Assembly (NCBI GenBank): GCA_963764165.1
Contig: CAVXRD010000001.1
Location: forward strand, 1,472,001 to 1,536,000
DNA from: an uncultured Verrucomicrobiae bacterium
Lineage (GTDB): Bacteria; Verrucomicrobiota; Verrucomicrobiia; Limisphaerales; Palsa-1400
Reading direction: 5' to 3'
DNA length: 64,000 nt
The translations under genes were made by a program, and so were the position numbers. Shown in pieces: positions 42,333 through 62,313 of the stretch (positions are counted from its first letter, which is position 1; each line of letters begins with the position of its first letter). The notes under the pieces are model-generated. The model saw only the letters and a list, made by a program, of their open reading frames with translations, searched no databases and was not told the origin of the DNA.

Positions 42333-42807
42333 TCACGTCCACAATTGCCGGTCCAGGGATCGGTACTGGATGGCTTCCGAGACGTGTTCCGCTCCGACCG
42401 TTTCCGCGCCAGCCAGATCCGCGATGGTGCGGGCGACTTTTAGAATTCTATCATAAGCGCGCGCGCTCAAATTCAAATCCGCCATCGCGAACTTCAGCAA
42501 TTCCTTCGTCGATTCGTCAATGGCGCAAAATGCTTTCAGTTCCTTGCTGCCCATGCGCGCGTTGCAGGTGACGGAACGTTTGTTGGCGAAGCGGGCCTGC
42601 TGACGCTTGCGCGCCGCAACCACACGATTGCGAATGGTCGCCGAGTTTTCCCCAGTTTGCTCGGCGCTGATGTCGCGGAACTTCACTTCCGAAACTTCAA
42701 TGTGCAAATCAATGCGGTCAAGCAGCGGCCCGGAAATTCGACCGAGATAATTTTGAATTTCCCTTGGCGAACTGCGCGATTCGCCCGGCATTTTTCCATC
42801 GGGCGTG
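42333..42807 (-). pseudogene. comM: 3' fragment of comM/yifB (Mg-chelatase-like ATPase), interrupted by an integrated element
   Basis: Y.GRISGPLLDRIDLH, LSARAYDRILKVARTIADL, EAIQYR; homology stops where the AMNP motif is expected; Walker A region absent. Confidence 0.9.
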
Positions 42808-42822
42808 CGCCATGTTGCCTTT
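42802..42822. other. Putative att junction (comM half plus GTTGCCTTT element half)
   Basis: comM codons end at ~42807, 6 nt from GTTGCCTTT; same geometry as the palindromes at 43104-43132 and 59466-59495. Confidence 0.7.
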
Positions 42823-43324
42823 TTGTGAACGGACTGTGAGCGTCTCACGATCCAAGTATCTTCCGTCCATGAACAGAGGAATATCAATCCCAAAAGAGCC
42901 AAAGACAATCGGCGAATTTCTAAGAAAACGGCGATTGGAACTCGGCATATTTCAGTCGGAAGCGGCTCTCAAGCTGGGAGTTAGCACGGTCACCCTGAGC
43001 CGGTGGGAGTGCGGCAAGGTATATCCAACATGGCCTCAACAACCCTCCGTCACAGCCTATCTCGGCCACAATCCATTCACCGATCCGGCCCTCGGAAAGC
43101 CCAAAGGCAACGAATCCCAGCGCGTTGCCTTTTTAGGATCCGGCGAGTCTCAAAACCTTGGTCAACAGATCGTCAGCCATTGCCTTAAAATGAGGAAAAC
43201 GATCCGAAAGTTCGCTGAGGAGGCAGGGATAAGCTCCAAAACAATTTGGAATTGGAAGACGGGCCGAAGGCAGCCAAGCCGCGCCGCTCACAAGCGAATC
43301 GCTGAACTGTTGGCAGCGCAATAA
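42812..43324 (+). CDS. Tandem XRE helix-turn-helix protein
   Basis: IGEFLRKRRLELGIFQSEAA.KLGVS..TLSRWE and a second HTH (AEEAGISSKTIWNWKTGRRQP). Confidence 0.8.
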   Translation: MLPFCERTVSVSRSKYLPSMNRGISIPKEPKTIGEFLRKRRLELGIFQSEAALKLGVSTVTLSRWECGKVYPTWPQQPSVTAYLGHNPFTDPALGKPKGNESQRVAFLGSGESQNLGQQIVSHCLKMRKTIRKFAEEAGISSKTIWNWKTGRRQPSRAAHKRIAELLAAQ

Positions 43325-43605
43325 CTGCTTGGCAAAAGGGATCGATCCCGATCCTCACCTCCACTTCTAACCGCTTGTGCGGAAATGGGTTGGGAGGCCA
43401 GGAAAGTCAATTGCTAACAGTTTGGCTAACAATATTCGGATTGCGCCAAAATTGTGCCACAATTCGGGAGGATTCTCCCGTTATTGCCCGACTGCGGGAA
43501 TCTTCGCCTCGGTAGTCCACGGGCGAACGTGGCGCAGATGTGGCCAGCAAGGTGATTCGCGTGACTGATGATGCTTGCGGCAAATGGTATGCCGCGTAAC
43601 GAAAA

Positions 43606-44184
43606 TCATGATTTCCTGATTTCGTGGAAGAGCCAGGTCCTGGAAAAAACCCAGTAGTTTTTTGCGGACGTGAGAGAAATCCCCAATAGTTCCGAAACTT
43701 CCTTGATCGTTAGCCCGGCAAAATAGCGAAGCTTGACCAGTTCGGCTTGAAGCGGGTGTTTCACAGCGAACTTATTCAGCGCCTCGTGCAGCGCCAGCAG
43801 TTGGTCGTCGGCTTCCGACGCGGCAATGTTGCACTCCTCAACGGGGATCCGTTCGCCGCTGGCACCGTGGCGAGCCGTCAGTTTCCGGCGGGCCCTGTCA
43901 ATTAAAATTCGCCGCATAGCCTCGGCGGCTGCGGAAAAGAAATGGGCGCGGTTTTCAAACCTCGGATTCTCCGACCCGACCAATCGCAGCCATGCCTCGT
44001 GCACCAGGGCCGTGGGCTGCAGCGTTTGTCCGGGCGCTTCGCGAGCCATTTTGCTAGCGGCCAGCCGTCGCAATTCCTGATAAACCAATTCAAGCAGTTT
44101 CTCGGCGGAACGAGGCTCGCCCTCTCCGATGGCTCTGAGAAGGGCGGTGGCATCAGTTGCATGCGCCGGCGAAGGTCGTTGCAT
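43606..44184 (-). CDS. ECF sigma factor, TIGR02999 (STK-associated) type
   Basis: ELRRLAA...TLQPTALVHEAWLRL, AMRRILIDRARR, LRYFAGL. Confidence 0.92.
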   Translation of the reverse strand: MQRPSPAHATDATALLRAIGEGEPRSAEKLLELVYQELRRLAASKMAREAPGQTLQPTALVHEAWLRLVGSENPRFENRAHFFSAAAEAMRRILIDRARRKLTARHGASGERIPVEECNIAASEADDQLLALHEALNKFAVKHPLQAELVKLRYFAGLTIKEVSELLGISLTSAKNYWVFSRTWLFHEIRKS

Positions 44185-44297
44185 GGTAGAAATTACTTCA
44201 CCACAACATGGCGTCGCGTGTGCGCGTATTTGTGTACACCTCGGCTTAGGGTGTTTTTACAAAATGCTTAATATAAGCAATTTACAACTTTATCGCC

Positions 44298-44325
44298 AAG
44301 GGTTCGAATCCCTTCGCTCGCTCCA
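44298..44325 (+). other. tRNA-Gly-like 3' fragment (att site), not an intact tRNA
   Basis: AAGGG-TTCGAAT-CCCTT T-arm plus CGCTCGC-T-CCA; no D-arm or anticodon arm upstream. Confidence 0.8.
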
Positions 44326-44519
44326 ATTTCTACCACAATCACTTACGTAAGAAGCATCTTCGCGGCATAACCTTTTCGCATAACAAATTCAAAGCTGTTC
44401 ACGACTATTTACCGCTGATTATCGCTGTCATTTTTGACGAATAATTCGTTTTTTCCGCGATTTGGTTTTCCGCTGATGGCCTCCCAATAAATATTTTTTC
44501 TCCACAAACTGAGATTCAT

Positions 44520-44810
44520 TCACGCTTTCCACCGTTCCGCTCCTCGCTGGATCGCTGTTACCTCCACAGCCTCGGCCAATCGCTGGAACGCAAGATTCTG
44601 CCGATTACGAGGCTCAGTCCTCTTTCCCGTAAAGCCGTTCAACTCATGATCAAACCGCCGCTCATGTCGCTGTCGAACTCGCTCCCAATAAAAAACAATC
44701 GCATCCTTCCGTTGAAATAAAAACCCACGCTCCGGCAGGCGGTCACTCTTTTTTCCGTTCACTTGAAGATCACACGGAAGCAGGTTCCATAGATCGTTGC
44801 AGTGTGATAG
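44520..44810 (-). pseudogene. C-terminal remnant of an HNH-endonuclease-domain protein
   Basis: HCNDLWNLLPCDLQVNGKKSDRLP is the second half of an HNH motif; 5' part missing. Confidence 0.65.
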
Positions 44811-44858
44811 ATAAAAGAAGCCCGCACAGAGGCGAACTTATTTCCCAAGCCGCGGATA

Positions 44859-47800
44859 CTAGTCTTCAGTTTTAAATGACACATCCGCACCCTGGCTCAG
44901 GCCGAGGCCGTTTACCGCGTTTATCCGATAGTGGTAAGTCGTGTTGCGGCTTAGACCCGAGAGGCTGAAGATAAGTCTCTGGGCCGAGGTTCCAATCCCG
45001 GTATGGGTGGTGGACGTGCCATAACTCGTCGTGGTTCCGAATTCAAAATAGACCGACGCGGGTGCTCCGTTGGGGTTGACATAGCCCGCCAGTTGCGCGG
45101 TGGTGCCGAGGACATTCGTTGCAGGAGAAGTCGTAACGCTCGGGAGGGCGGCGGTGGAGAAGTAAAGCGAGCTCGAAGAAACGCTTTCGTTGCCGAGGCT
45201 GTTGAACGCGGTCATGGACCATTGATATTCCTTCCCAAGTTCAAGGTACCCAGCCGGCAGGGCTTGGTTGGAACCGTGGGCGGAATAATTAACAATGAGA
45301 CTGCCCGTGGGATAGGCATAGATGGCGATATTGAAACTAGAAGCCTGACTCTCTCCGGTATAGGTGAAGTTGGGAGTTGTGGTCGCGAAGGCGGAATTGG
45401 AGGGTAAGGACGTGCCGGGTGATAACAGGGTGGGTGGCACGGGCACCCAAACGGTGGTAAAATTGGTATCCGCGCCATAAGTGATCCCGCCGCTGTTCAC
45501 CGCATTGATGCGATAGTGATAGGTGGTTGAAGAACTCAAGCCAGTGAGGGTGGCTTGAAAATCTCCCTGTGACGCGGTGCCGATGCCAGTTTGGGTGGTG
45601 ACCCAGCCATAGCTGGTGTTGGTCCCGTATTCGAAATAGGTGGTGGTTCCGCCCCCGTTGGGATTGACGCTTCCATTCAGAACCGCACCCGTGGTGGTGA
45701 CCGAGCTTGCGGCCAGCGTCTGGACGATGGGTGGCGGTTGCGAGGCTCCAGGGCTGGTTGTAAAAATAACGTCCGCTCCATATGTGATTCCTCCGCCATT
45801 CACGGCATTGATTCGATAATGATAGGTAGTGGAGGGATTCAGGCCGGAGATGGTAGCTTGGAAATCACTTTGTGGCGCTGTGCCGATGCCAGTTTGAGTG
45901 GTAACTTCGCCATAGCTTGTGCTGGTGCCGTATTCGAAATACGTGGTGGCACCTCCGCCATTCGGGTCGACGCTTCCATTTAATACAGCTCCGCTGGATG
46001 TCACGGAACTCGCGGCGAGCGTCTGGACTGTGGGGGGTGATTGCGATCCTCCCCCGGTGGTGGTAAAGGTGGCGTCCGCTCCGAATCCTTCTCCCGACGA
46101 GCTATAAGCAATGGCGCGAAAATGGTAGGTTGTGTTCGGGCTTAGTCCCGTGATGGGAGTGCTGTAGGTTTGAGCATCGTAATAGTCGGAGGTGGTGAAA
46201 AACTGGTTCGTGTAGGTCGAACTTCCATAGCTTGTATCGAGCCCATATTCGAACAAACCAGCAATGGGCAACCCGTTTCCATTGACGCTGCCGTTCAACG
46301 TGACCGAAGTGGCAGCCACGGAACTGGCGGAGAAGGTCAGGACGGTCGGAAGAGCAGGAGGGGGCGCGGCAGTTGTAACAAACTGGTCTCCACCATAGCT
46401 GACGCCGGCGCTGTTGGAGGCAACCAGTTGGAAATGGTAAAGGGTGCCTGGCGAAAGGCTGGCTGCGTAGGTCACGGCGACCGGATTGGTGATGGCCGCA
46501 CCGATCACGGTGGCAAAGGTATTCAGGCCGTAATTGGTGTCTCCGCCATATTGGAACCATGCAGTCGTATCGTTCCCGCTTGCAAAAGCGCTTCCGTTAA
46601 ATGTGGCGCCGTTGCTGGTCACCAGTGTGGCAGGCTCCGTCAGCACGGTGGGCGGTTGCGGATTTGTCGGCGCTGGATCCATGGTTGGGACGACCAATTG
46701 GTAAAAGCGTTGTTTGTTCGTCAGTGAATCCGTTGCGATGAGCGCGGAAATGCCGCCGGAAGCGTAAAAGTTGGTCAGCGTCCGCCAGATCACGGGCCGG
46801 GTATCAAGCGCGTCTGTGTAGAGCACCTGGTACGGTCGATAAGCCTGGGCGGTGAAATTGAGGCGGAATACGTTGCTCAGAACCTGGACTGAATCGATCT
46901 GAGGCGCCGTGGGCAGAATTTCATATTTCTGCTGCAAGTAGCCGTAGACCATTTGAAGTTCATCGCTGGTCAGGGCAGTATTGTAAACAAGAAGTTCCGC
47001 AATGTCTCCACGCCAAAATGTATCCCCGCTGGCACCGGACAATTTCCCCACGGCATAAGGACCCGCCAGGCTGGCCATCAGCATAGCCGGTGTGGCCGCC
47101 TGCGCGATAACCTCCTGGTTTTGGTACAAGGTGGTAATGTTGGCGCCATCACGGTTGGTTCCCACAACGACGGTTAGCACGGAGAAAAGCTGGGGACTGT
47201 GCACAACGGCGTTGCCGTTGACAAATTCCCTGCCGAATTGGGCCGTCACAGGGCCTGCACCGAAGAGTCCAAAGGAAACTGGCTGGCTGGAACCGGTGCT
47301 GGCACTGGAAAAGAGTCCCCGGGAAGTGTCGGTCATGCCCTGATCGTTCATCACCGCAACAATGGTAAACTGGGGTGACGTGATAACCTGAGTGGGGATA
47401 ATGAGGGACTGGTTTCCGCTCGCGCCGAACTGCACTGCAGGGAAGCCATTTGCCACGCCCGGCGCCAGCATGGGTTCGGCACTTGGGTCGGTTTGGCTCG
47501 CATCGTTACCCCAGCCCGATTGGTCGCCCCAGAAAGAAACTAATCCATTGGTGTCGGTCACGAGTTCGGTGTCGGCGGTGAGCCAAAGGACCAAATTGGT
47601 ATTGAAAAGGCCCGGGTCAGGCAATGGCTTGGACAAGCCCGAGCGCAATACTTTGACCATCACCGATGCGCTGGAGCTCCGGCCCATGTAGTCCGTGGCC
47701 ACCAAGGTCAAAGTTTGGGTGATGGGTGCCAGACCGGAGACACTTATCGAGTTGCCCTGTCCGATTTGCTTTTTGCCGGAATACCAGATCAAGCTTCCAT

Positions 47801-50800
47801 CCGGAATCACTTGGTGGCGGTCGTCGACCGCGTTCCCCGCGCAATGGAGAGCTTCCTCGTTGCCGGTGCTCGAGCCATTTTTGGGGCTGGTGATCGACAC
47901 GATGGGCGGATTGCCGCCCTCAGCGAACGGGGTCGAAATAACGGTCGTTTCGTTGAAGCCGTCATTTACCCGCAAACGCAGCAACGTAGTAGCGCACGTG
48001 CTGAAGTGCGAACTGGTAATGGAAACATAATTCGTATCAGGCCCGTAATAGAGTCCATTCCAGGTTTGCCCCATGTCGGTGGAGAAATCCACCGCCGTCA
48101 TCAGCATGTCTTTGTCGGCATCCGTTGCCGTCCAATTTACAGTTGTGACCAACTGGCCGATGGCATTGGGCATATCAGGCACCACATTGTTGATTTGGAC
48201 CACCGGCGCGTTGGGACTGCGCATCAATTTGGTGATCATCGAACCGTTGTGCATCACGGTCAGGCTGCCGAAGCCGTCCATGGTGTTGCTGGGAATCAAG
48301 GCATCCAAAAGATAGGAGAGTTCGCTATTGGTGTCATCTTGAGCCGTGCTCACGGTCATCGGGATGTCGTACAACAAATTTCCTGAACCATCCAGAGCCT
48401 GCAAATGAAAAGGTGAAGAGGAGGGTGGTCCCAAGTAAGGGAATGTTCCGGGCGTCACATCAAAAATGGACGCGCCCAAACGGCTGACCAAGGCATTCAC
48501 GCGGATGCCAGGGGTATTATTTACGGTGGTCTGATCATCCGAGGTTTCGTAAGGAGGGCAAGACACGTTGGCGGGGGGATAGCCATAGACCGTATTTGTG
48601 CCATAGAAGCCGGCTTGCCCCGAGCCCCCAAGCATCCAGTAAATCGTTTCCTCCCAGCCTTTTGGTGATATCCACTCATCAGGATCAGCGTTGATCCCAA
48701 GCAGGGTGCCGATGTCGTTATCGCCGTAAGACATAAAATCATAATAATAGTGGCTTGAGGAACCTCCGGGTATGGCAGGTCCGCTGATTCCATTGAAATA
48801 AACTGGAACCGTCAAGTCGCGGCGGTCGATGCCTACGCCGTCAATGTAACCCATATTATCGGGCGGCCACTGCTCCCAGCAACCGCTGGAGGTGTCCCCG
48901 GCTCCGCCATTCGGACTGGCGTGAGGTCGTGAAAATTGATGGGAAACCTCATGAATGGCCGAGTTTAAAGGCCCCAAATTGTCGCGAAACACCGAAACGC
49001 TATGGGGGTACAGGAAGCCCAATCCTCCAGCGATCTGGGAAGAGTTATAGGTCTTCCCTCGAATTCGTTCGGAAAATCCGGACCCGGGGTCGTATTCTGG
49101 AAAAATGCCCACGACGATGTTGCCCGTTTGAAAGTAATTGAATTTGTTGGCAATGGCGTGAACTCGCATGATGGCAAGGTAGGACCGGTCGTCGCCCGAA
49201 ATGCTTTGCCCCGCAATCGAAGAGGTGTTCCAAATTCCGGTGATGTCGGAATAGACGGTAAAATCATACAGCTTAAGGGGTCCATTACCGGACTGGCTCT
49301 CCCCGAGCGGCAACAAATTAATGCCATCGTCCAGGGTTGTTTGCGGTATATTCATGTCACACTCGGGACAGGTGGCGTTGTTATTGTTGACGGTCAGGCC
49401 AATGGGAATAAATTGAATATTGGGCATGGCCAGAAAGCCAATGTCTGTCATGGTGAGGGTGTCATTCGCGGGGCAGCAATCCATGCTTGGGACGGCCGGG
49501 GCGAGCACCTGCAAGTTCGGCACAAGTTGCGCCTGCAGCGTGATTTTTCCAAACGAGGGAGTAGTCCAGGACGGTGGCAACGTGAATCTGTAGTCATCTG
49601 AACTTGCGCGTTGCGCATCACTAACCACACCGGCCCCAACCCAATGTTGCGGATAAGCGGGATTGGTGCTCGCAGTTGGAAGCGGACTGCCAGGGAGAGG
49701 AGTCACAATGCCAAACGCATCCGCCGCATAACCATAGAGCAGGCAACTGATCTGTGGAACTTTCGTGGCGGAAGACTGAGGTTGGGGAGAACTCATGGCA
49801 GCGAATACGCGGACGACCGTTTTGCCACCCATGGCGAGGTCCACACCCGAGTAGGGGATGGACGACGCGGGGTTGCCGGTATTCGGATCAGTTGGCCGCA
49901 CCGGAAGGGCTGTGTATTGAATGCCTTGAGTCACTTCCATGTTGACGATGGCCGCATCGTAGGTGTTGGCGACCGTCACGTTAAAATTCACGGAGTGGGG
50001 ACCGTATCCTCCGGCTCCCGATGTCGGCGTCGCGGTGAAGGTTACGTTCTTGTTCAATACTGGAACGGCCGAGCTGTCTGCGGTCAAAATCACAACGATT
50101 AAATCATTGTCAGTTCCCTGAGAGGTAGTGGGCGAGATGCCCGCCGTGACTCCATCGGGCAGACCGGTGCAGGTGTAAGAAATGTCTCCAGAGGAACCGT
50201 TGATTCTTGTCAACTGAATAGTAACCGACGCAAGGAAAGTTCCATTTGCGCTGGTCCCTTCTGGAACCAATACTGTGCCAACCGTGGGGGAACCTTGGTA
50301 TTGGAGGGAGAAGTCCGGCAACTGAGGGCCGGAGAGCGTGTCAAACTCCAAATCATCAATACGGATGTTCTCGTTATAAAAACCATTGATCACGAAGCTC
50401 GCGATGTCTTTTCCCGATGAAGTCACGGAGAGATTGGTCCATCCTTCCTTCGACGCATTTGCTGCCACGAGAACTTGGTTCGTTCCCACGATGTTGCCTC
50501 CAAGATCGTAGGCGGTCAGGGTAACTTGACCGCCGCCGGGTGATTTGGCCCCCACGGAGACGCTTATGTAAGTGTGATGTGGATCAACGAAAGTCGCTTG
50601 CAAATAACTGCTGGGCTGCTCACCGCCATGCGTCGAAATATCTAGGATGTTCGGAGAGGAAGGAGCGGTGGCGTCCGCGATTACAAAACCAGCCGAGGAC
50701 TGAAACGGGGCAAAATTTACACCCATGCTGGAATACTGGTCGCTGACGTAGGTTCCGGTCGGAAGGTCATCGAACCCAACGACGGTGTCCGCCCGGGCGG

Positions 50801-50855
50801 TCAAGCAGGCCGACACGGAGCAAACCGCGATTGCCAGAATGATTTTCAAGTTCAT
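44859..50855 (-). CDS. 1998-aa secreted metzincin-like peptidase with LamG-like domain and FN3-like repeats
   Basis: Signal peptide; HEVSHQFSRPH plus YDFMSY Met-turn; LVLWLTAD...G.IAE.LVYN.AL; five P.V.T..A..V....A.LNG repeats. Confidence 0.85.
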   Translation of the reverse strand: MNLKIILAIAVCSVSACLTARADTVVGFDDLPTGTYVSDQYSSMGVNFAPFQSSAGFVIADATAPSSPNILDISTHGGEQPSSYLQATFVDPHHTYISVSVGAKSPGGGQVTLTAYDLGGNIVGTNQVLVAANASKEGWTNLSVTSSGKDIASFVINGFYNENIRIDDLEFDTLSGPQLPDFSLQYQGSPTVGTVLVPEGTSANGTFLASVTIQLTRINGSSGDISYTCTGLPDGVTAGISPTTSQGTDNDLIVVILTADSSAVPVLNKNVTFTATPTSGAGGYGPHSVNFNVTVANTYDAAIVNMEVTQGIQYTALPVRPTDPNTGNPASSIPYSGVDLAMGGKTVVRVFAAMSSPQPQSSATKVPQISCLLYGYAADAFGIVTPLPGSPLPTASTNPAYPQHWVGAGVVSDAQRASSDDYRFTLPPSWTTPSFGKITLQAQLVPNLQVLAPAVPSMDCCPANDTLTMTDIGFLAMPNIQFIPIGLTVNNNNATCPECDMNIPQTTLDDGINLLPLGESQSGNGPLKLYDFTVYSDITGIWNTSSIAGQSISGDDRSYLAIMRVHAIANKFNYFQTGNIVVGIFPEYDPGSGFSERIRGKTYNSSQIAGGLGFLYPHSVSVFRDNLGPLNSAIHEVSHQFSRPHASPNGGAGDTSSGCWEQWPPDNMGYIDGVGIDRRDLTVPVYFNGISGPAIPGGSSSHYYYDFMSYGDNDIGTLLGINADPDEWISPKGWEETIYWMLGGSGQAGFYGTNTVYGYPPANVSCPPYETSDDQTTVNNTPGIRVNALVSRLGASIFDVTPGTFPYLGPPSSSPFHLQALDGSGNLLYDIPMTVSTAQDDTNSELSYLLDALIPSNTMDGFGSLTVMHNGSMITKLMRSPNAPVVQINNVVPDMPNAIGQLVTTVNWTATDADKDMLMTAVDFSTDMGQTWNGLYYGPDTNYVSITSSHFSTCATTLLRLRVNDGFNETTVISTPFAEGGNPPIVSITSPKNGSSTGNEEALHCAGNAVDDRHQVIPDGSLIWYSGKKQIGQGNSISVSGLAPITQTLTLVATDYMGRSSSASVMVKVLRSGLSKPLPDPGLFNTNLVLWLTADTELVTDTNGLVSFWGDQSGWGNDASQTDPSAEPMLAPGVANGFPAVQFGASGNQSLIIPTQVITSPQFTIVAVMNDQGMTDTSRGLFSSASTGSSQPVSFGLFGAGPVTAQFGREFVNGNAVVHSPQLFSVLTVVVGTNRDGANITTLYQNQEVIAQAATPAMLMASLAGPYAVGKLSGASGDTFWRGDIAELLVYNTALTSDELQMVYGYLQQKYEILPTAPQIDSVQVLSNVFRLNFTAQAYRPYQVLYTDALDTRPVIWRTLTNFYASGGISALIATDSLTNKQRFYQLVVPTMDPAPTNPQPPTVLTEPATLVTSNGATFNGSAFASGNDTTAWFQYGGDTNYGLNTFATVIGAAITNPVAVTYAASLSPGTLYHFQLVASNSAGVSYGGDQFVTTAAPPPALPTVLTFSASSVAATSVTLNGSVNGNGLPIAGLFEYGLDTSYGSSTYTNQFFTTSDYYDAQTYSTPITGLSPNTTYHFRAIAYSSSGEGFGADATFTTTGGGSQSPPTVQTLAASSVTSSGAVLNGSVDPNGGGATTYFEYGTSTSYGEVTTQTGIGTAPQSDFQATISGLNPSTTYHYRINAVNGGGITYGADVIFTTSPGASQPPPIVQTLAASSVTTTGAVLNGSVNPNGGGTTTYFEYGTNTSYGWVTTQTGIGTASQGDFQATLTGLSSSTTYHYRINAVNSGGITYGADTNFTTVWVPVPPTLLSPGTSLPSNSAFATTTPNFTYTGESQASSFNIAIYAYPTGSLIVNYSAHGSNQALPAGYLELGKEYQWSMTAFNSLGNESVSSSSLYFSTAALPSVTTSPATNVLGTTAQLAGYVNPNGAPASVYFEFGTTTSYGTSTTHTGIGTSAQRLIFSLSGLSRNTTYHYRINAVNGLGLSQGADVSFKTED

Positions 50856-50941
50856 AGCGTTTTCTGATTTATGGTGTGCCCCGATGAGTTAAGCAGCCGT
50901 TCCTGATTGTTCGTGGGTGAACTGATGCATTTTTCATTAAT

Positions 50942-50973
50942 CAATGCGGGATTTCGCGGCCAAAGACGCAAAA
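50942..50973 (-). promoter_or_regulatory. Putative ECF-dependent promoter of the large protein
   Basis: TTTTGCG-N19-GCATTG, same motif and spacing as at 54584-54615. Confidence 0.6.
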
Positions 50974-51027
50974 TATTTTGCGCGAGGAAAACGAACCGTC
51001 GAAGGCGCCCTGCGTGGCGCGTCACTA

Positions 51028-54000
51028 CTAATTTAATCTCAGGCTGGCCAGGACCTGCTCGATTTCCCGCAAACTCCAGATGGCGATGTCGCCGTTCTCG
51101 CGGGCCACGGCAAGGCGACGGCTGTCCAGACTCCAGGCCAATGCGTAGACCGTGCTATTTTCTTCCGGCAGGGAGTAAAGGTATTTGCCCGTTTTGGGAT
51201 CCCAGATTTCCACGCCGCGCACAGAACGCGTATCGAACGCGAGCAAGGAACCGTCGGGACTGAGGCAAAAGTTCCAGATCGACGCCGGCCACGCTCTAAT
51301 GTCTCCAATTGGAAATGAGGAAATGCATTTTTCCGTCGCCAGATCGAAGGTAGCCACCTCCACGTTGGTTCCAGTCGTGAACATCAACTGGCGGCTGTCC
51401 GGTGTGAAGCTGCAACATTGAACGCCCCACAGCACTCCGGGTCCGACCGAACGCGGTTGATCCGCCCGCTGAAAATCCCAAATGTAAATGCCGCTCCCCT
51501 CAAACACCACGAATTTTGCGTCCGGCGAAAACAACAGGCTGTTTCCGGATGCCGTTGCCGACTTGAAAAGCGTGGCTGAAATTTTTCCCTGCCTGTCGCC
51601 GGGCGAGCCGTGCTGGATCTCCCAAATCTTGGTTCCGCTGCGACCGGTTGCGGCAACGAAATGGCCGTCGGGACTGAACTGCGCCGCCCAGATTCGCCCG
51701 ACGCCGTTACCACGGAGTTCGAGAAGCCGCTCGCCAGTATGCGCGTCCCAAATCCAGATCAAATCCGTTTCCCAATCTCCGGTGACCAGCCATTGCCCAT
51801 CGGCGCTGTAGCCCACGCATTGGCCTGGGCCGGGAAGAGTGCCAGAATCCCACAGGATGTCGCCTTTTACAGCGTCGCTCACTCTTGCCACGCGATCCTT
51901 CCCCACCGACACAATGCGCGCGCCATCCGGACTGAAGGCAATGCTGGTCACAGCGTCGCTGTGGGAGTGCAGCGTCAATTTTTCGGGGGTTTCCAGCCTG
52001 TATACCCACGGGCGCCTGGCAGACAGTGTCACCAAAAACCTTGCATCAGGCGCGAAGGCAAGTGGCGAAGCATCTTCCGGCTCCTCCAAAAAAGCTATGT
52101 CCTCCTGGCGCGCCAGACTCCAGAGACGGATGCGCATTTGATGTCTGATTGGAACGGCGATGGTGTCATTGGCGATGGCTGCGCCCGATCGAAAAAACTC
52201 CTTAAGATCGCTGACTCGTTGGAAACCAGGGAGCGAGTAGACCGTCCCACCTGAAACTGAAAAATAAGAAAGATGCGTTCCGTCAGGACTGAATTCGAGA
52301 CTTCCCGAGCTCGCCAACTGGGTTTGTTGCCGTCCCACGCGCCGGCCGCTCTCCACTTCCCAAAGTTCTAAAACGGGCTTGTTCGTGTCAGTGGGATCCA
52401 CGTTTTGCACCGCCAGATACTGTCCGTCAGGACTTAGAGCCGCGCTCCGGACATTGGTCATTTCAATCCCTGGGACGAACGTCCGGGTCTGCAAATTAAA
52501 CAGCCTCAGCTTCGAGTCTGGATTAGCCGCGTGTTCTTGCAACGGCGAGATCGAGGTAACGATGGAGGCAAACATGCCTTTGGTGGAGGCCGACAGGTCG
52601 ATGGCCCCGGGCAACAGGCTATTTTCCGTTTGAGACCAGATTCCGTTGGTTCTGCGGTTCCAAATATAAAGCCGCACGGCGGGCTGCCCCTGTTTCCGTG
52701 TTCCTGGAATCGGCCCGTACAGCGCAAACAATTGATCGCCCGTAGAATTGAAGCTGAGACTTGCTGGATAGTTCGTGCCCGCCAGCCGGGCCACTTCCCT
52801 GCCCGATGGAATCTCCCGCAGCAGGATCGTGCCATTGGCCAGTGCAAACGCCCCTAATTTTCCAGACACATCGAGATCCGCCGAGGTGATATTCGAGTTC
52901 GTTGGAAAATCGTCAAATGTCGTCGGCATCAGCCCAACAAAATCGCCGAGGGCGGCTACGGCTTCGCGCCGCAAACCAGACGGGTCTTTTTGGGGAACTT
53001 GAAGATCGCGCGCCTCTTGAAGAAGTTTGAAAACTTTGTCGCGATAACCCATGCGCCGGGCCAGCCTCGTCTCGCGCGCCTGGCCAACGAGCGAATCGTA
53101 AAGTTCCCGGCGCGCCGACGCTTTTTGATCCGCTTCGCTCGCCTCCGCTTTCTGCGCGCGATAGTGAGCCTGACGTTCCCGCAAGAACATCCACGTCGAA
53201 ACTGCCAAGCCTGCGCCGAGCGCGGCGACGAACGTCGCAGCGACGACAAAAGCGACCTTGTTGCGGCGCATCATTTTTTGAAAGCGATAGCCCGAACTTG
53301 GCGGGCGGGCGATGACAGGCTCGTTGGCTAAATGGCGCTCGATGTCCATCGCCAATCCGTTGGCGGTTTCGTAACGACGCGTGCGGTCCTTTTCAAGGCA
53401 CTTCATCGCGATCCAATCAAGATCACCCTGCAATTGGTGAAGCAGCCTGGTCGTATCGGTGGATCTTCGCTTCGCTGTCGCGGTCAAATCATCGCCCTTG
53501 AGTGTTGAGAAACTCGTGCTTGGCCGCACTGGCTCTTGCTCTCGAATGGTTTTGCGCATCGCGTCCAGGCCCGCTGCGATGAGTTCCTTTCCATCGAATG
53601 GAGTTCGCCCGGCCAGAAGCTCGTAGAGCAAAACACCCAGGCTGTAAATGTCGCTGCGCGTATCAATATCCAGACCGCTCATCTCCGCCTGTTCCGGACT
53701 CATGTAGGCGGGCGTGCCCATGAACTGATGCAACTGCGTGTAAACTGTTTCCGCCGTCAGCCGGCCTTCCGTCGCCTTGGCGATGCCAAAATCAATGACC
53801 TTCGGCACCGGCACGCCGTCGTGAAGCGTGACCATGATGTTCGACGGCTTGATGTCGCGATGGATGATTCCCTTTTGGTGCGCGTGCTGGACGGCGTGGC
53901 AGACCTTGATCATCAAGTTCAACCGTTCCGTCGTGTTGAGTTGGTTCTGGTCGCAGTAATCGGTAATCTTAACGCCCCGCACCAATTCCATGACAAAAAA

Positions 54001-54479
54001 CGGCGGCCGGTCTCTGTGGCGGCGGCGTCGAAGACCTTGGCGATGTTGGGATGATCCATCATGGCCAGGGCCTGGCGCTCCGCTTCGAAACGCGCGACCA
54101 CCTGCCTGGTATCCATTCCCAGCTTGATGACTTTCAGGGCAACGCGGCGCCGCACTGGCTCGTTCTGCTGGGCGACGTAGACAACTCCGCAGCCACCTTC
54201 GCCTACTTTCTCCAGCAGCCTGTAGCGGCCGATCGTTTGGCCAACGGCCTCGTCATCCGGGTTGATCAGGCTGGATTTGGCCGATTCGCCACTAGGCCTT
54301 GGCGCAGGACTGTCAAAGAAATCGCCAGCCTCCTGATCAGCTTGAAGAAGCTCCTCCACTTGCTGGCGCAAGGAGGCGTCGCCAACGCACACTTCATCAA
54401 GGTACGCGGCGCGCTCATCGCCGGGCAACTTGCGCGCTGTATTGAAAACATCCGCTGCACGCGCGGGGGATTCTGGCAT
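51028..54479 (-). pseudogene. Ser/Thr protein kinase with TM and WD40 repeats, frameshifted at ~54,000
   Basis: GEGGCGVV and VALK in ORF 53919-54494; HRDIKPSN, DFG, GTPAYMSPEQ and WD40s in ORF 51028-53991. Confidence 0.88.
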
Positions 54480-54583
54480 AAATTCGCGTCCCACTATCCG
54501 TCCATGGTTGTGAGAAATCGAAGCAAATAGACCGTTCCAACATTCCTATGTTGTTGAACCAGCGGCATTCGCTCATCCATTAC

Positions 54584-54615
54584 CAATGCAGGATTCCAGC
54601 GCAAAAAGCGCAAAA
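54584..54615 (-). promoter_or_regulatory. Putative ECF-dependent promoter of the kinase
   Basis: TTTTGCG-N19-GCATTG. Confidence 0.6.
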
Positions 54616-54676
54616 AAGTTACTCATGCGAAAAACAAATTCGAGCAAACCGCTAGAAGAACATTCGATCAACCTGC

Positions 54677-55240
54677 TCATGGAAGTTGTGCCTTGATTTC
54701 CCGGTAGAGCCAGGCGCGCGCGAAGGCCCAATAGTTGTCGGCAGTGCGCGCGGAAATATTCAGCGCCGCAGCCGCTTCCTCCAAAGTCATTCCCACGAAA
54801 TAGCGAAGCTTCACCAATTCAGCTTCCGCCTTGTGCTGCACGGCGAGTTTGTCGAGAGCGTCGTTGACGGCCAGAAGCTTGTCATCGGGATATGGAGCGC
54901 GAACCTCGTCGGCAAGTTCGAAGTCAACGCGCTGCTGGCCGCCACCGTGGCGAATGGCCCGCTTGCTCAAGGCTCTGTCAATTAGAATACGCCGCATCGC
55001 CTCAGCTGCGGCGGAGAAAAAATGTGCGCGATTGGCAAAAGGCGGATTCTCCGCCCCGACCAGTCGCAGCCACGCTTCGTGGACCAGCGCGGTGGGCTGC
55101 AAAGTCTGATTAGGCGATTCACGGGCCATCTTAGACGCTGCCAGCTTGCGCAACTCATCGTAGACGAGGGGGAGCAGTTCGTCAGCGGCCTTGAGGTCCC
55201 CGTGTTCGATCGAATCAAAGATGCGGGTGAGCTGACTCAT
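54677..55240 (-). CDS. ECF sigma factor, TIGR02999 type
   Basis: LLPLVYDELRKLAA, TLQPTALVHEAWLRL, W.FARAWL. Confidence 0.93.
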   Translation of the reverse strand: MSQLTRIFDSIEHGDLKAADELLPLVYDELRKLAASKMARESPNQTLQPTALVHEAWLRLVGAENPPFANRAHFFSAAAEAMRRILIDRALSKRAIRHGGGQQRVDFELADEVRAPYPDDKLLAVNDALDKLAVQHKAEAELVKLRYFVGMTLEEAAAALNISARTADNYWAFARAWLYREIKAQLP

Positions 55241-55519
55241 TGAGCCTCTAGCTTAACCTGCTCCCGAGGCGTTTCGCCAGAGATTATCGCAGCGGATATC
55301 ATTTGCCAATGGACCCGGCGGTCGTAGTCTGACGAAGTCTTCCCAATATCATCGGCAGGGACCGCCCCTCGCGCAACGGTCTCGGTTTCGATTTTATGAT
55401 CCGTGCTGATGGGTGATTGACCTCGCCCTTCTATCACGGCTCCGATTTCGTCGCAAGTAGGTAAAGACGCTCTTGAGATTCGGCGTCCCTCCATTATCGT
55501 AGGGGTAACTAGAAGCGCG

Positions 55520-55942
55520 ATGGACACGGCTGTCATAAATGTCGATATCTGCTCAGTCAGTATTATTCTTATCGAGGACGATCAGGACGATATTTTCTTT
55601 TTTCTCCGGTCACTATCGGCTGCAGGTTTTCCGAAGCAATGTATTCATGTGTTTGACGGGAATTCTGTGAGGTCGTATCTCGAAGCCCATGCCCGCCAGC
55701 CGCACTTGGTGTTCCTCGATCTGAAAATGTCCCGAGTTAACGGATTTGAGTTCCTCGAATGGCTTAGTAACCAATCATTTCGGAGTTTTATCGAAATTGT
55801 TGTCCTCAGCGGCTCAAATTCACCTGATGATTTCAGAGAGGCGAGCGCACTTGGAGCGTCGGATTTCCTTCCCAAACCTCTATCAAGCACTGTTCTCGCG
55901 GAAAAAATCCACGATTGGCTGCATCAATCGGCGCAAGCGTAA
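55520..55942 (+). CDS. Single-domain response regulator
   Basis: ILIEDD.DD, FLDLKM, LPKP. Confidence 0.85.
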   Translation: MDTAVINVDICSVSIILIEDDQDDIFFFLRSLSAAGFPKQCIHVFDGNSVRSYLEAHARQPHLVFLDLKMSRVNGFEFLEWLSNQSFRSFIEIVVLSGSNSPDDFREASALGASDFLPKPLSSTVLAEKIHDWLHQSAQA

Positions 55943-56202
55943 GCCCCTCATGGGGAATTCGTTGCACAAACCAATGACGTGAAGTGGCCACACCCTAAAA
56001 AATGCACCGACGCGACCGGAAACAAGAGGATTGATCGGTTAGTCGATTCAAAGCGGTCGCATCCGCGCCTATTAACTTTCCTTAATTCCAATTCCAGTGC
56101 CAGAGACGAGAAAATCGCTAGCGTCAGTTCGGCTGCGACCGCTAGGCCGAATTCTGAGCCTCACCGATTGGCGTTTCAGATTTTGAGAAAGCGTCGTAAA
56201 TT

Positions 56203-56691
56203 TTACAGTTCTCCAAACTGGACCTTGCGCGCCGCATCCAAGCCGTCCGTGCAAATTAATGGAAGTTCGTTCAACCGCAGCCAAAAGTCTTTTATCATTC
56301 TGGCAAGTTCTGCCCTTTGAGAGATTCCGGGGGGTTTAACGACAAAAGCGTTTACACCAAGCCGGTAGGCTTGCTCAACATCGGTCGGAATTGCAGAAGA
56401 TGACAACATTACGGTCGGCAGGCAGCGGAACGATTCCTCACTCTGAAGCCATCGCAATACATCAATCCCGCTTTTGCGCGGCATTTTCAGATCAAGAATT
56501 ACCAAAGCAGGCAAAGGAAAATGGTTCCGATCGGAATATTTTCCTTTACCAGAAAGATACTCGATAGCCTCCTGGCCGTCGCAAACAATGCGAAGTGGAG
56601 TCTGGATTCCCGCATCTTCAAACGCGCGTTGCAGAAGGAACACGTCATTTGGATCATCTTCCGCCAATAACACTCCACGATCAGTTTTCAT
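56203..56691 (-). CDS. Single-domain response regulator (Rcp1-like)
   Basis: LLAEDDPND, ILDLKMP, AY.LG.N.F.VKP; ATGA overlap with the histidine kinase. Confidence 0.9.
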   Translation of the reverse strand: MKTDRGVLLAEDDPNDVFLLQRAFEDAGIQTPLRIVCDGQEAIEYLSGKGKYSDRNHFPLPALVILDLKMPRKSGIDVLRWLQSEESFRCLPTVMLSSSAIPTDVEQAYRLGVNAFVVKPPGISQRAELARMIKDFWLRLNELPLICTDGLDAARKVQFGEL

Positions 56692-58610
56692 GTTTCTGCT
56701 CCCGATAATTGCAACCAAAACCGACTTCCTTTTCCCGGTTCGGATTCAACCCCAGCTTCGCCGCCCATGCGCTCGGCCGCTTTGCGGACGATAGCCAGTC
56801 CGATGCCCGTTCCCGGAAAAGCGTTGCCATGCATCCTTTGAAACATTTGGAAAAGGCGTGGCTTTCCATGGGCAGCAATGCCAATACCGTTGTCTTCAAT
56901 CCAAAGACGCACCCCGCCGCCATTCCGCTCGGTGTAAATGCGGACCGCAGGCACAGTGTTTTGTGACACAAATTTAACCGCATTGTCTAACAAATTCGTA
57001 ATGCACTGGGTCAGGGAAGTTTCGTTTCCCGTCACCCACAATAACGGCGTTTCAATCTTGATCTCGGCTCGCGGTAGCTGAAAGTCGGGCCGGTCCTGAA
57101 TAATATTCTGGATAACTTTATACACATCGACAGCCTCAATCGCGACCGGGGCGCGAGCCACGCGAGTAAACGTGAGCAAATCGAGGATCAATTTGTCCAT
57201 GCGTTGGGCAGCCCTGATGGCTTTCCTGAGCAGGTCCGATCCTTTCGGGTCAATTTTTTCACCGTAATCCTTCAACACAATTTCCGAGAAGCTTTCAATG
57301 GTCCGCAATGGAGCGCGCATGTCATGCGACAAGCTATACGAAAAAGCTTCCAGTTCGGAGACGGTCTTTTCCAGTGTGCGTGTGCGTTCACGAACCTCAC
57401 GTTCCAACTCTCCGGCATACGATTGAAGTTTTGCGTTCGCTTCTGCCAGGGCCTGCTCGGCGTGCTTGCGTTCGGAAATATCGCGGGCGATTTTCGAGGC
57501 CCCGATTATCTGGCCGTCGCTATCTTTAATAGGAGAGATAGTCAATGAAATCGGAAGTCGGCGGCCATCCTTGGCCACTCGAACCGTTTCAAAGTGATAC
57601 ACGCGCTCCCCTCGTCGCAACCGGGCGAGGATTTCATCCTCTTCTTTTTGCAGTTCCAGAGGAATCAACATTTTGATCGACCGGCCAATTATTTCGTCCC
57701 CTGAGTAGCCAAAGAGGCGTTGCGCGCCTTCATTCCAACTGGTAATAATCCCGTCAAGATTCTTGCTGATAATCGCGTCGTCGGAATTTTGCACGATCGC
57801 GGCAAGCCTCAATGCCGTCACTTCGGCCGCGCGGTGCTCAGTGACATCCCGGAAAACCAGAACCACTCCAAGCAACTCCCCCGCGCTTCCGCGTATCGGC
57901 GCTCCGCTGTCGTCAATTGGCCGTTCTGTTCCGTCCTTTGAAATGAGAATAGTATGGTTGGCCAGCCCGACAACGGTTCCTTGTTGAAGAACTTTGGTGA
58001 CGGGGTTTTCAACGGGTTTTCGGGTAAATTCGTTGACGATATTAAATGTGTCAACCAACGGAACGCCGAAAGCCTCTGGTGGCTTATGTCCTGTCAATGC
58101 CTCGGCCACGGCGTTCATGAATGTGACTCGACCGTTCCGGTCCGTCGCGATTACGCCGTCCCCTATGCTGGACAAGGTGACACGAAATTGTTCTTCACTT
58201 TGCCGAATCCGTTCCCGGGCAGCCACTTGGGGGGTAATGTCTCTCGCAATTTTGGATGCTCCAATAATCTTTCCATCTGAATCAACGACAGGCGAGACGG
58301 TGAGCGAAATATTCAGCAGGGCACCGTTCTTGGCCCGTCGAATGGTTTCGTAATGTCTAATACGCTCGCCCCTCTTGATTCGTTCGAGAATCATTGGCTC
58401 CTCGTCCGTCCGGTCGGGGGGGATGAGCATTACCACCGGTTGTCCGATGGCCTCCTGCGGCGTGTATCCAAAAATCATTTCGGCGCCTCGGTTCCAACTC
58501 GTAATGACGCCATCGAGATTTTTAATAATGATCGCGTCGTCGGACGAGTCCATAATGGCCACCAGCAATGCATGAGACTGCTCCTCGAACGGATTCATAA
58601 TTCTCAACAC
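56688..58610 (-). CDS. Cytoplasmic triple-PAS sensor histidine kinase
   Basis: Three PAS domains, FSYSLSHDMRAPLR, NLLDNAVKF, GTGIGLAIV. Confidence 0.93.
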   Translation of the reverse strand: MLRIMNPFEEQSHALLVAIMDSSDDAIIIKNLDGVITSWNRGAEMIFGYTPQEAIGQPVVMLIPPDRTDEEPMILERIKRGERIRHYETIRRAKNGALLNISLTVSPVVDSDGKIIGASKIARDITPQVAARERIRQSEEQFRVTLSSIGDGVIATDRNGRVTFMNAVAEALTGHKPPEAFGVPLVDTFNIVNEFTRKPVENPVTKVLQQGTVVGLANHTILISKDGTERPIDDSGAPIRGSAGELLGVVLVFRDVTEHRAAEVTALRLAAIVQNSDDAIISKNLDGIITSWNEGAQRLFGYSGDEIIGRSIKMLIPLELQKEEDEILARLRRGERVYHFETVRVAKDGRRLPISLTISPIKDSDGQIIGASKIARDISERKHAEQALAEANAKLQSYAGELEREVRERTRTLEKTVSELEAFSYSLSHDMRAPLRTIESFSEIVLKDYGEKIDPKGSDLLRKAIRAAQRMDKLILDLLTFTRVARAPVAIEAVDVYKVIQNIIQDRPDFQLPRAEIKIETPLLWVTGNETSLTQCITNLLDNAVKFVSQNTVPAVRIYTERNGGGVRLWIEDNGIGIAAHGKPRLFQMFQRMHGNAFPGTGIGLAIVRKAAERMGGEAGVESEPGKGSRFWLQLSGAET

Positions 58611-59174
58611 TTTATTCCAGTAATTTTGACGAGTGTTATAAGGTGCTCTCCTACGCGGTCAGAAGAAACGGAATCATTCAGCCTCTCCCATCTCTTTCGA
58701 AATATCGGCGCAAGACGGCGATCCCGCAACCCCAAATTCGCATTGGAAACGTGTCCACTGCCGCGCTCGGGAGGGCCTCGCCATCGCACGAGGGAATACG
58801 GGCTCTCCGATTCAACCCATCGTAACAGACGTTGTAATGCCACATAGGGGTGGCCACTATGAGTGAACGCCATCGTCGCAATATGCCCGAACGTCAAAAC
58901 ACTGATTAGATCGGGCTACGCCGATGAAAACACAGCGCTTTTCATGTTCTCCCGCAAGGCCGTGCGTCCCTTCCAAAGCCTTATTTGTTAGTGGCTCTTA
59001 CGAACAAGGTTCGAGAAATGTTGGATCATTAAGACAGGCTCGATTGTTCACGGGTCGGCCACTCGATTATATTACACGCTCTCAACCCTGAACCTCTTTA
59101 ATATTGCGCGGTGTTTGAACTTGTCACATTGCCTTCTAAGTTCCTGGTCGTAAAGGTCTTACAGCTTGTGCGCG

Positions 59175-59681
59175 ATGTTGCCTTTTTGCGACCGCACTGT
59201 AAGCGTCGCCCGGAAGGATGTTGCACCCGTATGGACACGGAGTTTTCCAATTGCAAAGGAGCCTACAACCCTTGGCGAACACCTCAAGAAGAAACGGTTC
59301 TTGGCTGGCATCCGACAATCGGAAGCCGCTCTAAAACTGGGGGTTAGCGACAGAACCCTTAGCCTTTGGGAAACAGACCGGGTGTATCCGGCCTGGGCTT
59401 TCCAGCCCCGTCTAATCACTTACCTCGGATACGACCCATTCACCAACCCGGCGCTTGGAAATCCTAAAGGCAACGAAACATCGCGTGTTGCCTTTTTATC
59501 ACCCGATGCCCCCGCCACCACCGGTCAGAAAATCAAAAACCGCCGTTTTAAATTAAAGAAAACGAGGAAGCAATTGGCATCGGAACTAGGCGTTAGCGTC
59601 AAAACGCTGTGGAGCTGGGAAACAGATCGCCGGCAACCGACATCCCAAGGCCAAGAGCAGATTGCAAAGTTTCTTGAATGA
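59175..59681 (+). CDS. Tandem XRE HTH protein, paralog of 42812-43324
   Basis: MLPFCDRTVSV...LGEHLKKKR...QSEAALKLGVS; second HTH. Confidence 0.8.
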   Translation: MLPFCDRTVSVARKDVAPVWTRSFPIAKEPTTLGEHLKKKRFLAGIRQSEAALKLGVSDRTLSLWETDRVYPAWAFQPRLITYLGYDPFTNPALGNPKGNETSRVAFLSPDAPATTGQKIKNRRFKLKKTRKQLASELGVSVKTLWSWETDRRQPTSQGQEQIAKFLE

Positions 59682-60037
59682 GCGGATTACCGTTGGCGGC
59701 ACTGGGCCTGTTGGCTTCTTGCCACCGCACCATTCACCATGTTCACAGAACAACATCGCTCCATTTTAAGCAGTTGCGAAACTATCCAGCAAGCCCCAAG
59801 ACCCTTGGCGAGCACCTTCGCAAAAAGCGGATGGACCTCCACCTTTCCATGCCGCAACTTGCTGCAACGCTGGGACTTGGAATCACCGTCACCGAGATCG
59901 AGAAATGGGAAAAGAATCAGAATCGACCGACGAACGAACACCGCCATCAAATCGTTCAGTTCCTTGGGTTTGACCCGGCAACCACAAAAAACAGGCAGCT
60001 AATAGCGAGCCGCCTGTTGGGTATTGACCACCGATAA
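59678..60037 (+). CDS. XRE HTH protein
   Basis: YP..PKTLGEHLRKKRMDL...KWEKNQNRP. Confidence 0.7.
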   Translation: MSGLPLAALGLLASCHRTIHHVHRTTSLHFKQLRNYPASPKTLGEHLRKKRMDLHLSMPQLAATLGLGITVTEIEKWEKNQNRPTNEHRHQIVQFLGFDPATTKNRQLIASRLLGIDHR

Positions 60038-60491
60038 GTGCTAGCGCGGTGACAGCGCAACGCCCTAAATTGTGGAAATTTGATTCAAGAGCCAGCCTGC
60101 CGTAGTCTCTCTGGCATGATTAAACGGATGATTGGTGGACAGAATTGCAGGACTGTCGCCTTCCGAATGCGCTCCGGTGGTCCCCCAATTCTTGGTTTCT
60201 TGATGAGGTTTTAGTCAGGCATATGGTTTGGTCCTTAGGCTCGTTTAGTTTGGAAGTGCTTGCTTGTTAACGGGTTTAGGACGGTTCGAACGACTCATCA
60301 GAGTGAAAAGTAGCGACGGCGAAGAAGTTGTGGAAACCGTTTGCACGTCGCGAGTTCTGGTGACGGGCAGTCTGGATTTCGTCGCCAACGCCCAGCGAAC
60401 TTCATTCGCTATTTATAGATCTTAAAAGAAGTACATTCTATTTGACGATTGTTCTTGAACTTCACGATGGAAACGCATAATGTAATAACCA

Positions 60492-61451
60492 ATGGTACCA
60501 AGCTTATTGGAAACTTTTGCGCCGATCCTTAGAGCGACTCGTGAGGAAAAAGGCTGGGCGCAAGCCGAATTGGCCGAAAACAGTCGCGTCGCGCTACGAA
60601 CGATTATGAACCTTGAATCTCCAAAAGGGAATACAAAGGTCAGATTCGACGTCATCGTTAGATTGGCACATGCACTGAGCAAGCCTCAGACCGATTGGCT
60701 GAAGCACACGGGGCACTCCCAAATCCCCCAGACCCGAATTGACCAAGTATTGAAAAAAATGGGCGTAGTCGATTTCCACGGGGAGAAGGAACCAGTCCAT
60801 TTTTTTCAAAGCTTGGATGACAAGCTCCAAAAGGGGAGTCCTGTGATCGCCATCATTTGCTATCGAACATTTTCATCGTACACTCACCAAAAATTCTTTG
60901 CGACTAGCATAGCGCCGTTGCTCGACACAGGGAAACTGTTTCTCGCTCTTGTTTGCCCATATCCCAAAATCCAGGATATCGATCAAGTACAGAAGCAAAC
61001 TCTTTCAAGGATATATTCGCAAGTGAGAAGTGAAGTGATCGGAATCACCAAGGAAGTAAAGACCGTGATGAGAAATCCGCAATTCAGAAATCACATGGCG
61101 GCGTTCTCTTTAAATGCGAAGCTCGACAACGCGGTGCCTCCAACGCTCGGACTCTCGGAGTTCCGGCCCATACTGGTGCAATCATTTGTAGAATATTCGC
61201 CAACAAACAAGAAGCCAGAGTATGAATTGACCGGTTGGCTAACGTTCCTACAAGATCACAAGGAACGCTGGATACATATTTTTCCTGCACCGCCGAAACT
61301 CACATCTCAACAAGACGCCCATCGTAAAATATGCGATGCTTGGAAGGAATATTTTCAAGAGATCCTTGATAACTGTAACTATGAAAACGAAGGTTGGATG
61401 AAAGACTCACAGCATTGGGGCATTTGGGATATGGCGGACATTATGATATAA
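60492..61451 (+). CDS. XRE HTH regulator with a large unrecognised C-terminal domain
   Basis: LRATREEKGWAQAELAENSRVALRTIMNLE; ~240-aa C-terminal region. Confidence 0.8.
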   Translation: MVPSLLETFAPILRATREEKGWAQAELAENSRVALRTIMNLESPKGNTKVRFDVIVRLAHALSKPQTDWLKHTGHSQIPQTRIDQVLKKMGVVDFHGEKEPVHFFQSLDDKLQKGSPVIAIICYRTFSSYTHQKFFATSIAPLLDTGKLFLALVCPYPKIQDIDQVQKQTLSRIYSQVRSEVIGITKEVKTVMRNPQFRNHMAAFSLNAKLDNAVPPTLGLSEFRPILVQSFVEYSPTNKKPEYELTGWLTFLQDHKERWIHIFPAPPKLTSQQDAHRKICDAWKEYFQEILDNCNYENEGWMKDSQHWGIWDMADIMI

Positions 61452-61517
61452 TGCTAGCGATGCCACGGTCGATCTCTAAGATGAGGTTGATCAACAATTT
61501 AATATCTGCTTGATGAT

Positions 61518-62300: not shown

Positions 62301-62313
62301 GCCATAATCTCAT

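Follow-up and report, generated by a model that had tools for sequence, protein, structure and literature searches.

A large serine recombinase gene probably split at its own attachment site in a comM-inserted island, with a putative att-derived palindrome in the severed tail

The window analyzed in this work is a stretch of 64,000 nucleotides from an uncultured Verrucomicrobiae bacterium, in which a frame with two XRE helix-turn-helix (HTH) domains begins directly beside a break in the gene comM. This locus raises the question of why a regulator-like gene should start inside half of an attachment (att) site and carry a further att-like palindrome between its two DNA-binding domains. Our answer is that the apparent XRE gene is very probably the 3' end of the large serine recombinase (LSR) gene of the inserted island, cut off because attP lies inside that gene.

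The island in comM and the severed recombinase gene

An island of 59,245 bp is inserted in comM, the host target, which encodes a Mg-chelatase-like ATPase, and the two halves of this gene are found at the two island ends on the same contig. The 3' half occupies positions 42333..42806 on the minus strand (Pfam PF13335/PF01078), while the 5' half (G000:C1:1574052-1575104) lies 59 kb from it, converging on the LSR gene. The left part of the island (42807..64000, with no strand assigned) runs past the window to G000:C1:1574051, and the GC content of the island is 51%, compared with about 57% for the genome. The crossover dinucleotide GT (42805..42806, plus strand) is repeated at the other island end (G000:C1:1574050-1574051), and at both ends a 7-nt gap separates it from its arm of a perfect 15-bp inverted repeat. 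On the window side, the P' half-site (42807..42828, plus strand) consists of the 7-nt spacer and a 15-bp arm; its perfect inverted repeat at G000:C1:1574028-1574042 is the matching arm that the original prediction expected at the far end of the island. The attP that it proposed to rebuild from both ends can accordingly be written out, with 15-bp arms around the common GT core and the hexamers GGCAAC and GTTGCC 16 nt apart (a 7+2+7 spacer). Excision of the 59,245 bp in silico makes ComM whole again as a joined frame of 508 aa.

The reading frame was rejected as a locator of the crossover, since a cut shifted by up to 3 nt keeps both frames; the cut was therefore placed from the common GT, the symmetry of the arms and metagenome contigs. 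Four contigs from a peat metagenome diverge from the window exactly after 42806 and continue into intact comM, which places the break independently. In the small shares of two DNA sequencing runs that were searched, the empty site was seen and the rejoined attP was not. The arm does adjoin the comM break as had been claimed, although the gap between GT and arm is 7 nt rather than 6 nt. The true attP consequently has a spacer of 16 nt, versus 12 nt in the internal palindrome.

The recombinase of the integrated island (G000:C1:1572575-1574077, plus strand) has 500 aa and spans the P arm and the core; its 3' end crosses the junction, and its last residues are read from antisense comM. It contains a resolvase-type catalytic domain (PF00239, E 1e-31) and a Recombinase domain (PF07508, E 9e-17), and in a comparison of 52 homologs R15-V16-S17 and the zinc-ribbon cysteines C300, C302, C317 and C320 are invariant. 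The catalytic and Recombinase domains, the zinc ribbon with its inserted coiled coil and the layout of attP, with inverted arms around a 2-nt core in a site of about 46-50 bp, are those of the LSR class. When the circle is joined in silico, the LSR frame passes through attP into the XRE frame and gives an LSR-HTH-HTH protein of 664 aa. The XRE frame (42812..43324, plus strand; 170 aa, Pfam HTH_3/HTH_31), with HTH1 from about 42905 and HTH2 from about 43154, would thus be the detached C-terminal tail of the recombinase, as the in-frame join and the natural fusion P0001 (see below) suggest. The codons ATG TTG CCT TTT TGT at 42812 overlap the GTTGCCTTT arm at 42814, and the XRE N-terminus is indeed encoded by an att half-site, the frame starting in the P' arm of the island. 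The original prediction that excision swaps the region upstream of this gene describes a real change but is incomplete, as excision would also make the gene an in-frame extension of the recombinase. The joined frames establish two predicted states of the gene, fixed by recombination. Annotation pipelines name the tail an independent XRE regulator and have it begin at a codon that belongs to attP.

The set of junction, gene and palindrome is present once more at 59168-59681, unremarked in the original prediction. Its P' junction (59168..59191, plus strand) has the same GT core, is located at a non-comM site inside the island and is an alternative excision partner. The double-HTH tail of 168 aa that follows (59175..59681, plus strand) is 53% identical to the first and would likewise join the recombinase in frame. 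The adjoining single-HTH relative (59678..60037, plus strand) is probably the stranded tail of another LSR subfamily, and a similar unit adjoins a different comM break in locus L208. A 637-aa LSR of the island (G000:C1:1540287-1542200) was considered as the partner of the second junction and rejected, as it had no tblastn match to the comM LSR and no matching arm was found nearby.

Directly upstream of the LSR gene, the part of the island ORFs that was scanned includes a gene for a VirD4/TrwB-like coupling protein, which has matches at 54 of the 111 LSR loci examined; we infer that the island is an integrative mobilisable element. A small gene of 78 aa (L007:6256-6492, that is G000:C1:1572256-1572492, minus strand) is divergent from the LSR gene and looks helix-turn-helix-like by eye; it had no match in a Pfam scan, and weakly similar stretches were found in four relatives.

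Rejoined frames and unsplit fusions among relatives

In the order to which the host belongs, the LSR was found in 63 of 401 genomes and the tail in 34 of 401 at the cut-offs used. Scanning one genome per species yielded 231 LSR matches, the best 80 of them retained, in many bacterial phyla and in two archaeal bins. Among 20 genomes probed from these best-80 loci, the tail was found in 17 and was unmatched in three, which are incomplete genomes. All 28 end pairings, across many phyla, rejoin in frame. An automatic test requiring the same core and an open frame through the HTH was passed by 24 of them, and three more, which were mis-calls of the arms, proved to be in frame once the core was set by hand: a tRNA-Ser element (503 to 576 aa), G408 (497 to 638 aa) and G403 (588 to 680 aa). 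The fourth, G077, has a joined frame of 582 aa through a single HTH. As the elements are kin, these are not 28 independent tests; moreover, pairing was assumed across contigs or strands for G022, G047, G077, G103, G403, G412, G416 and G418, and three of the 28 pairings use internal junctions.

The codon phases of the arms bear on whether the joined frame is maintained. In 23 of the 28 pairings the arms lie at phases 2 and 3, with a QRN-like LSR end and an LPFC-like tail start; in the other five they lie at phases 3 and 1, so that the same DNA encodes different residues on either side of the junction while the fusion is preserved. On the LSR tree, the second type occupies an 11-member clade (support 98) and one separate tip, i.e., two places. 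This frame shift, compensated on both sides, is the strongest sign of selection. The suggestion that DNA rather than protein drives the MLPFC motif was confirmed as well, the same arm DNA being read in other frames and the start codon being variable.

Unsplit LSR-HTH fusions occur in public data, namely P0001 from this lineage, whose tail region is 52% identical over 98% of the window tail, and P0003 and P0004 (656 aa). Fusions were present at six of the 80 genome loci (the best 80 of 231), plus one that is frameshifted, and in 17 of 104 representatives of 50%-identity clusters that reach the LSR end, with identity down to 33%; both shares are overestimated, because the queries were themselves fusions. 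A protein search for longer forms returned one fusion among 778 candidates, and a viral collection contained two LSR loci, neither of them fused. L092, L120, L128 and L131 were not counted, having no HTH at that place. All six fused genome loci carry a site with a 16-nt spacer at the junction of LSR and tail, and several of them branch as sisters to split forms in the LSR tree. In the AlphaFold model of P0003 (mean pLDDT 84, pTM 0.47), both the LSR and the tail are folded and joined by an att-encoded, disordered linker (residues 478-500, pLDDT under 50); the model has long helices, and its best fold matches are serine integrases. Two further proteins, P0002 and P0296, have tails with three and six HTH units. 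A Patescibacteria unsplit fusion ends beside a tRNA-like fragment (L135:2494-2560, seen by eye; ARAGORN called no gene) and ribosomal protein genes, so that unsplit copies might be carried within elements that another enzyme had inserted.

The host genome contains a paralog of the island, the 47-kb tRNA-Ser element mentioned above (G000:C4:732246-779895), which is inserted in tRNA-Ser(CGA), has a single-HTH tail and carries tRNA 3'-end sequence in its P arm. A stranded P' half-site is present at C4:732618 and a decayed tail at C2:903656. In other genomes, units made of the comM 3' half, P' and the tail stand in tandem, with three such units in G224 (L196, L197 and L016; G224:C13); units that are repeated or stand beside intact comM also occur in L198 (G250) and in L194 with L023 (G239). 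By their sequence arrangement, some hosts appear to have regained a whole comM yet kept the junction. Four tail copies lie along one island in L210-L211 (G415:C4) and L209 (G408), three of them behind the same non-comM secondary site, a series that suggests repeated nested insertion.

The palindrome within the tail

The palindrome reported at 43103-43132 (plus strand), between HTH1 and HTH2 and 310 bp past the first arm, was recovered as a perfect 10-bp inverted repeat with a 10-nt loop, in which GGCAAC and GTTGCC are 12 nt apart. It exceeds chance, because a repeat this long arose in only 16 of 2000 synonymous randomisations of the gene and because the exact 12-nt spacing recurs in 27 of the 33 tail loci in the lineage; the six lineage loci lacking it mostly end early or are broken. 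With one mismatch allowed, the 9-mer shows no enrichment across the window (24 matches versus 19.5 expected), and the six exact 9-mer matches all fall in two copies of one arrangement, 42814-43132 and 59177-59495, the latter including a second internal palindrome with a 12-nt spacer (59466..59495, plus strand). Outside the lineage, the palindrome was found in 1 of 36 tail loci, and around LSRs it occurs at background level; the wider family lacks it, so the system does not depend on it. As far as sequence comparison goes, the split is widespread and conserved, and the att-derived internal site is specific to one lineage.

The repeat is conserved as DNA. Across 17 aligned genes, a single codon is used for each residue wherever that residue is kept (G99 14/14, N100 17/17, E101 17/17, V105 16/16, A106 15/15 and F107 11/11), and the only other single-codon columns lie in the P' arm. 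The palindrome is also kept in a second reading frame (L022, L034 and P0001) and outside coding sequence (L025, L030, L032, L033, L077 and L079). Matched to the P/P' consensus, its left half is like the inner P arm and its right half like the outer P' arm; the right arm resembles the distal part of P', and the left arm is without the distal motif. Its centre columns are variable in the 32 sites compared, with no conserved central dinucleotide.

The original prediction took the palindrome for an attP-like or recombinase-binding site. A full attP was rejected: the spacer in both window copies and in the 27 lineage loci is 4 nt shorter than in attP, no core is conserved and the left distal motif is absent, while binding of the recombinase remains likely. 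The palindrome looks like a copy of attP shortened by 4 nt in the centre and maintained for sequence-specific binding. The accessible part of one source describes the role of the distal motif in LSR att arms and the fixed geometry of LSR half-sites (PMC3783163), and because of that geometry the palindrome should not normally be cleaved. On balance, it is probably bound by the recombinase and left uncut, although its conservation could also come from binding by the tail's own HTHs.

Readings of the tail and comparison with known systems

In LSRs, a separate small factor normally determines the direction of recombination, and the sites are regarded as self-sufficient. Likewise, to our knowledge, serine integrases are thought not to need accessory sites. 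The explanation that we favor, with somewhat better than even confidence, combines an LSR that loses its tail by splitting with an internal site serving as an uncut accessory site for the recombinase. The free circle would make the 664-aa LSR-HTH-HTH protein, and the integrated copy would make the 500-aa enzyme ending in a few antisense-comM residues. By analogy with Myxococcus phage Mx8, the long form would likely favor integration, and loss of the tail on integration would likely stabilise the inserted state. In this lineage, the recombinase may be loaded or held near attP by the internal site, which would lie about 310 bp away in the circular form and would not be recombined itself. That the tail alters the activity or direction of the recombinase in cis has about an even chance of being true; the extreme C-terminus of the SPbeta integrase matters for excision, according to the accessible part of a recent report (10.1101/2025.01.03.631226). 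A broader picture can be put forward tentatively, in which serine integrases spanning several phyla edit their own protein, excision adding a two-HTH module and integration removing it, so that direction would be set by gene rearrangement with no separate factor, and one lineage would carry a non-cleavable attP decoy in the tail coding sequence. An enzyme whose own reaction sets which of two sequences it has, the difference being a folded DNA-binding module, offers a direct test of how the C-terminal domain changes LSR direction or activity. For enzyme mining, members taken from integrated islands represent the truncated form with a host-derived tail and may not be the ones that integrate best.

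The starts of the tail frames bear on whether the tail acts by itself. Most tails (59 of 70 loci) begin in a P' arm; at 51 junctions of the first phase type the 'start' codon is GCG in 24, ATG in 18, ACG in 6 and another in 3, the next codon, TTG, is dictated by the arm, and a Shine-Dalgarno-like motif precedes 4 of the 59 starts. Separate translation of the tail from its own ATG or TTG could nevertheless occur. It is possible, if rather unlikely, that the tail is a transcription regulator, fused or alone, which binds an operator (possibly the internal palindrome) and controls integrase or transfer genes while the recombination chemistry is unaltered. Among solved structures, those nearest to it in sequence are P22 c2 and other XRE repressors, its frame is open in most loci, and the ATG codons are concentrated in this lineage. 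However, the prevalence of GCG and ACG and the rarity of Shine-Dalgarno-like motifs speak against this reading, the arms of the palindrome are recombinase arms common to the whole family even where the HTH sequences differ widely, and a separate gene, the small divergent HTH-like one, already stands upstream of the LSR gene.

The palindrome could also be read as an intrinsic terminator or an RNA hairpin derived from att arms, which we consider improbable. It is a stem followed by a T run, with predicted energies of about -3 to -18 kcal/mol across sites, and in single-HTH variants it lies just past the stop codon. Covariation, however, does not exceed that of shuffles (0.072 versus 0.067, with 141 of 500 shuffles as high), in a test of little power as the arms barely vary. 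Most departures break pairs, the unpaired loop positions are near-invariant and match the P arm, and the palindrome was not called by a terminator scan limited to loops of up to 8 nt.

Still less credit goes to the proposal that the free tail, translated after integration from an ATG or TTG of its own, is a recombination directionality factor (RDF) that turns the short LSR towards excision. The coding sequence of the tail lies exactly where integration frees it, no other such factor was identified, and direction control involves the C-terminal region of LSRs in the accessible part of the SPbeta report (10.1101/2025.01.03.631226). On the other hand, no start codon is conserved except the arm-fixed TTG, and engineered integrase-RDF fusions act on attL x attR in the accessible literature, so that under this proposal a circle making only the fusion should integrate poorly.

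Equally doubtful is an active secondary recombination site that exchanges HTH modules: the boundaries of modules do coincide with the palindrome (two HTH2-only units, L194 and L195, start at it, and HTH1-only genes stop just before it) and, in a weak tree of 60 columns, the lineage's HTH2 clusters with first-position HTHs (92/97 and 82/85), but the 12-nt spacer of the palindrome differs from the 16 nt of every attP examined, its centre varies where attP cores are conserved, its left arm lacks the distal motif and no half-site products broken at its centre were seen in the loci examined. The same boundaries and grouping lend limited support to the original idea that recombination at these sites built the double-HTH gene, and an origin of the palindrome as an old recombination junction is plausible from them.

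The split recombinase gene proposed here can be compared with several known systems. In mycobacteriophage BPs, integration-dependent immunity relies on an attP in the repressor gene, where integration removes a degradation tag. In both systems, recombination at attP edits the reading frame of a regulator; in BPs this is a repressor gene, whereas here a regulator-like domain is part of the integrase frame. The split of SSV-type archaeal integrases separates the N- and C-terminal parts of the integrase itself, which is of the tyrosine family, whereas the cut described here leaves the catalytic LSR intact and removes just an accessory tail. The accessible text on the SSV type describes int as interrupted by its own att site on integration (PMC5861418). 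In phage Mx8, attP likewise lies within the integrase gene, and integration exchanges a C-terminus of 112 aa for a host-derived one of 13 aa with lowered activity (PMC4701971, accessible part); the C-terminus is exchanged on integration here too, but the Mx8 enzyme is a tyrosine integrase, while the present LSR loses a tail of ~170 aa with two XRE HTH domains. In streptococcal rumA ICEs, a serine integrase has its att site in its own 3' end and differs in C-terminus between the excised and integrated states (same source and part). In both cases the gene is split at its 3' end; in the account given there, the exchange changes the frame and no DNA-binding tail is described, whereas here the frame is kept with compensating shifts and the tail has two HTH domains. 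The targets also differ, being rumA in those ICEs and comM here, or tRNA-Ser for the C4 paralog.

Mg-chelatase/comM genes are targeted by 12.4% of predicted site-specific LSRs (PMC10083194), the same target class as here; the strings 'HTH' and 'C-termin' are absent from the accessible main text of that source, whose supplements may list these enzymes. A literature search through titles, abstract openings and partial texts, mostly outside subscription papers and excluding supplements, found no LSR that gains an XRE domain on excision. Within that range, the principle of a self-splitting integrase is known from Mx8 and the rumA ICEs, and the folded XRE tail is the part for which no precedent was found.

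Several other features of the island and the genome were recorded. The cargo (L007-L009 and window positions 61518-63963) includes the unrelated 637-aa LSR, a type I restriction-modification pair, an IS1-like transposase, a proteasome-subunit-like gene and a radical-SAM/nucleotide-kinase cluster. At 51028-54494 of the window, a Ser/Thr kinase-WD40 gene is broken across two frames near 53990 (a frameshift or a sequence error); an ECF sigma gene adjoins it, and a second one lies at 43606-44184. A ten-tRNA array, one member of which is called with a TTA anticodon, occupies G000:C2:1559019-1567965. Finally, positions 43339-43493 are 87% like the 3' part and flank of a tRNA-Cys (G000:C2:3277875-3278029) that precedes a tyrosine integrase gene, and by this similarity the segment right behind the tail's stop codon would be an orphan attachment-site fragment.
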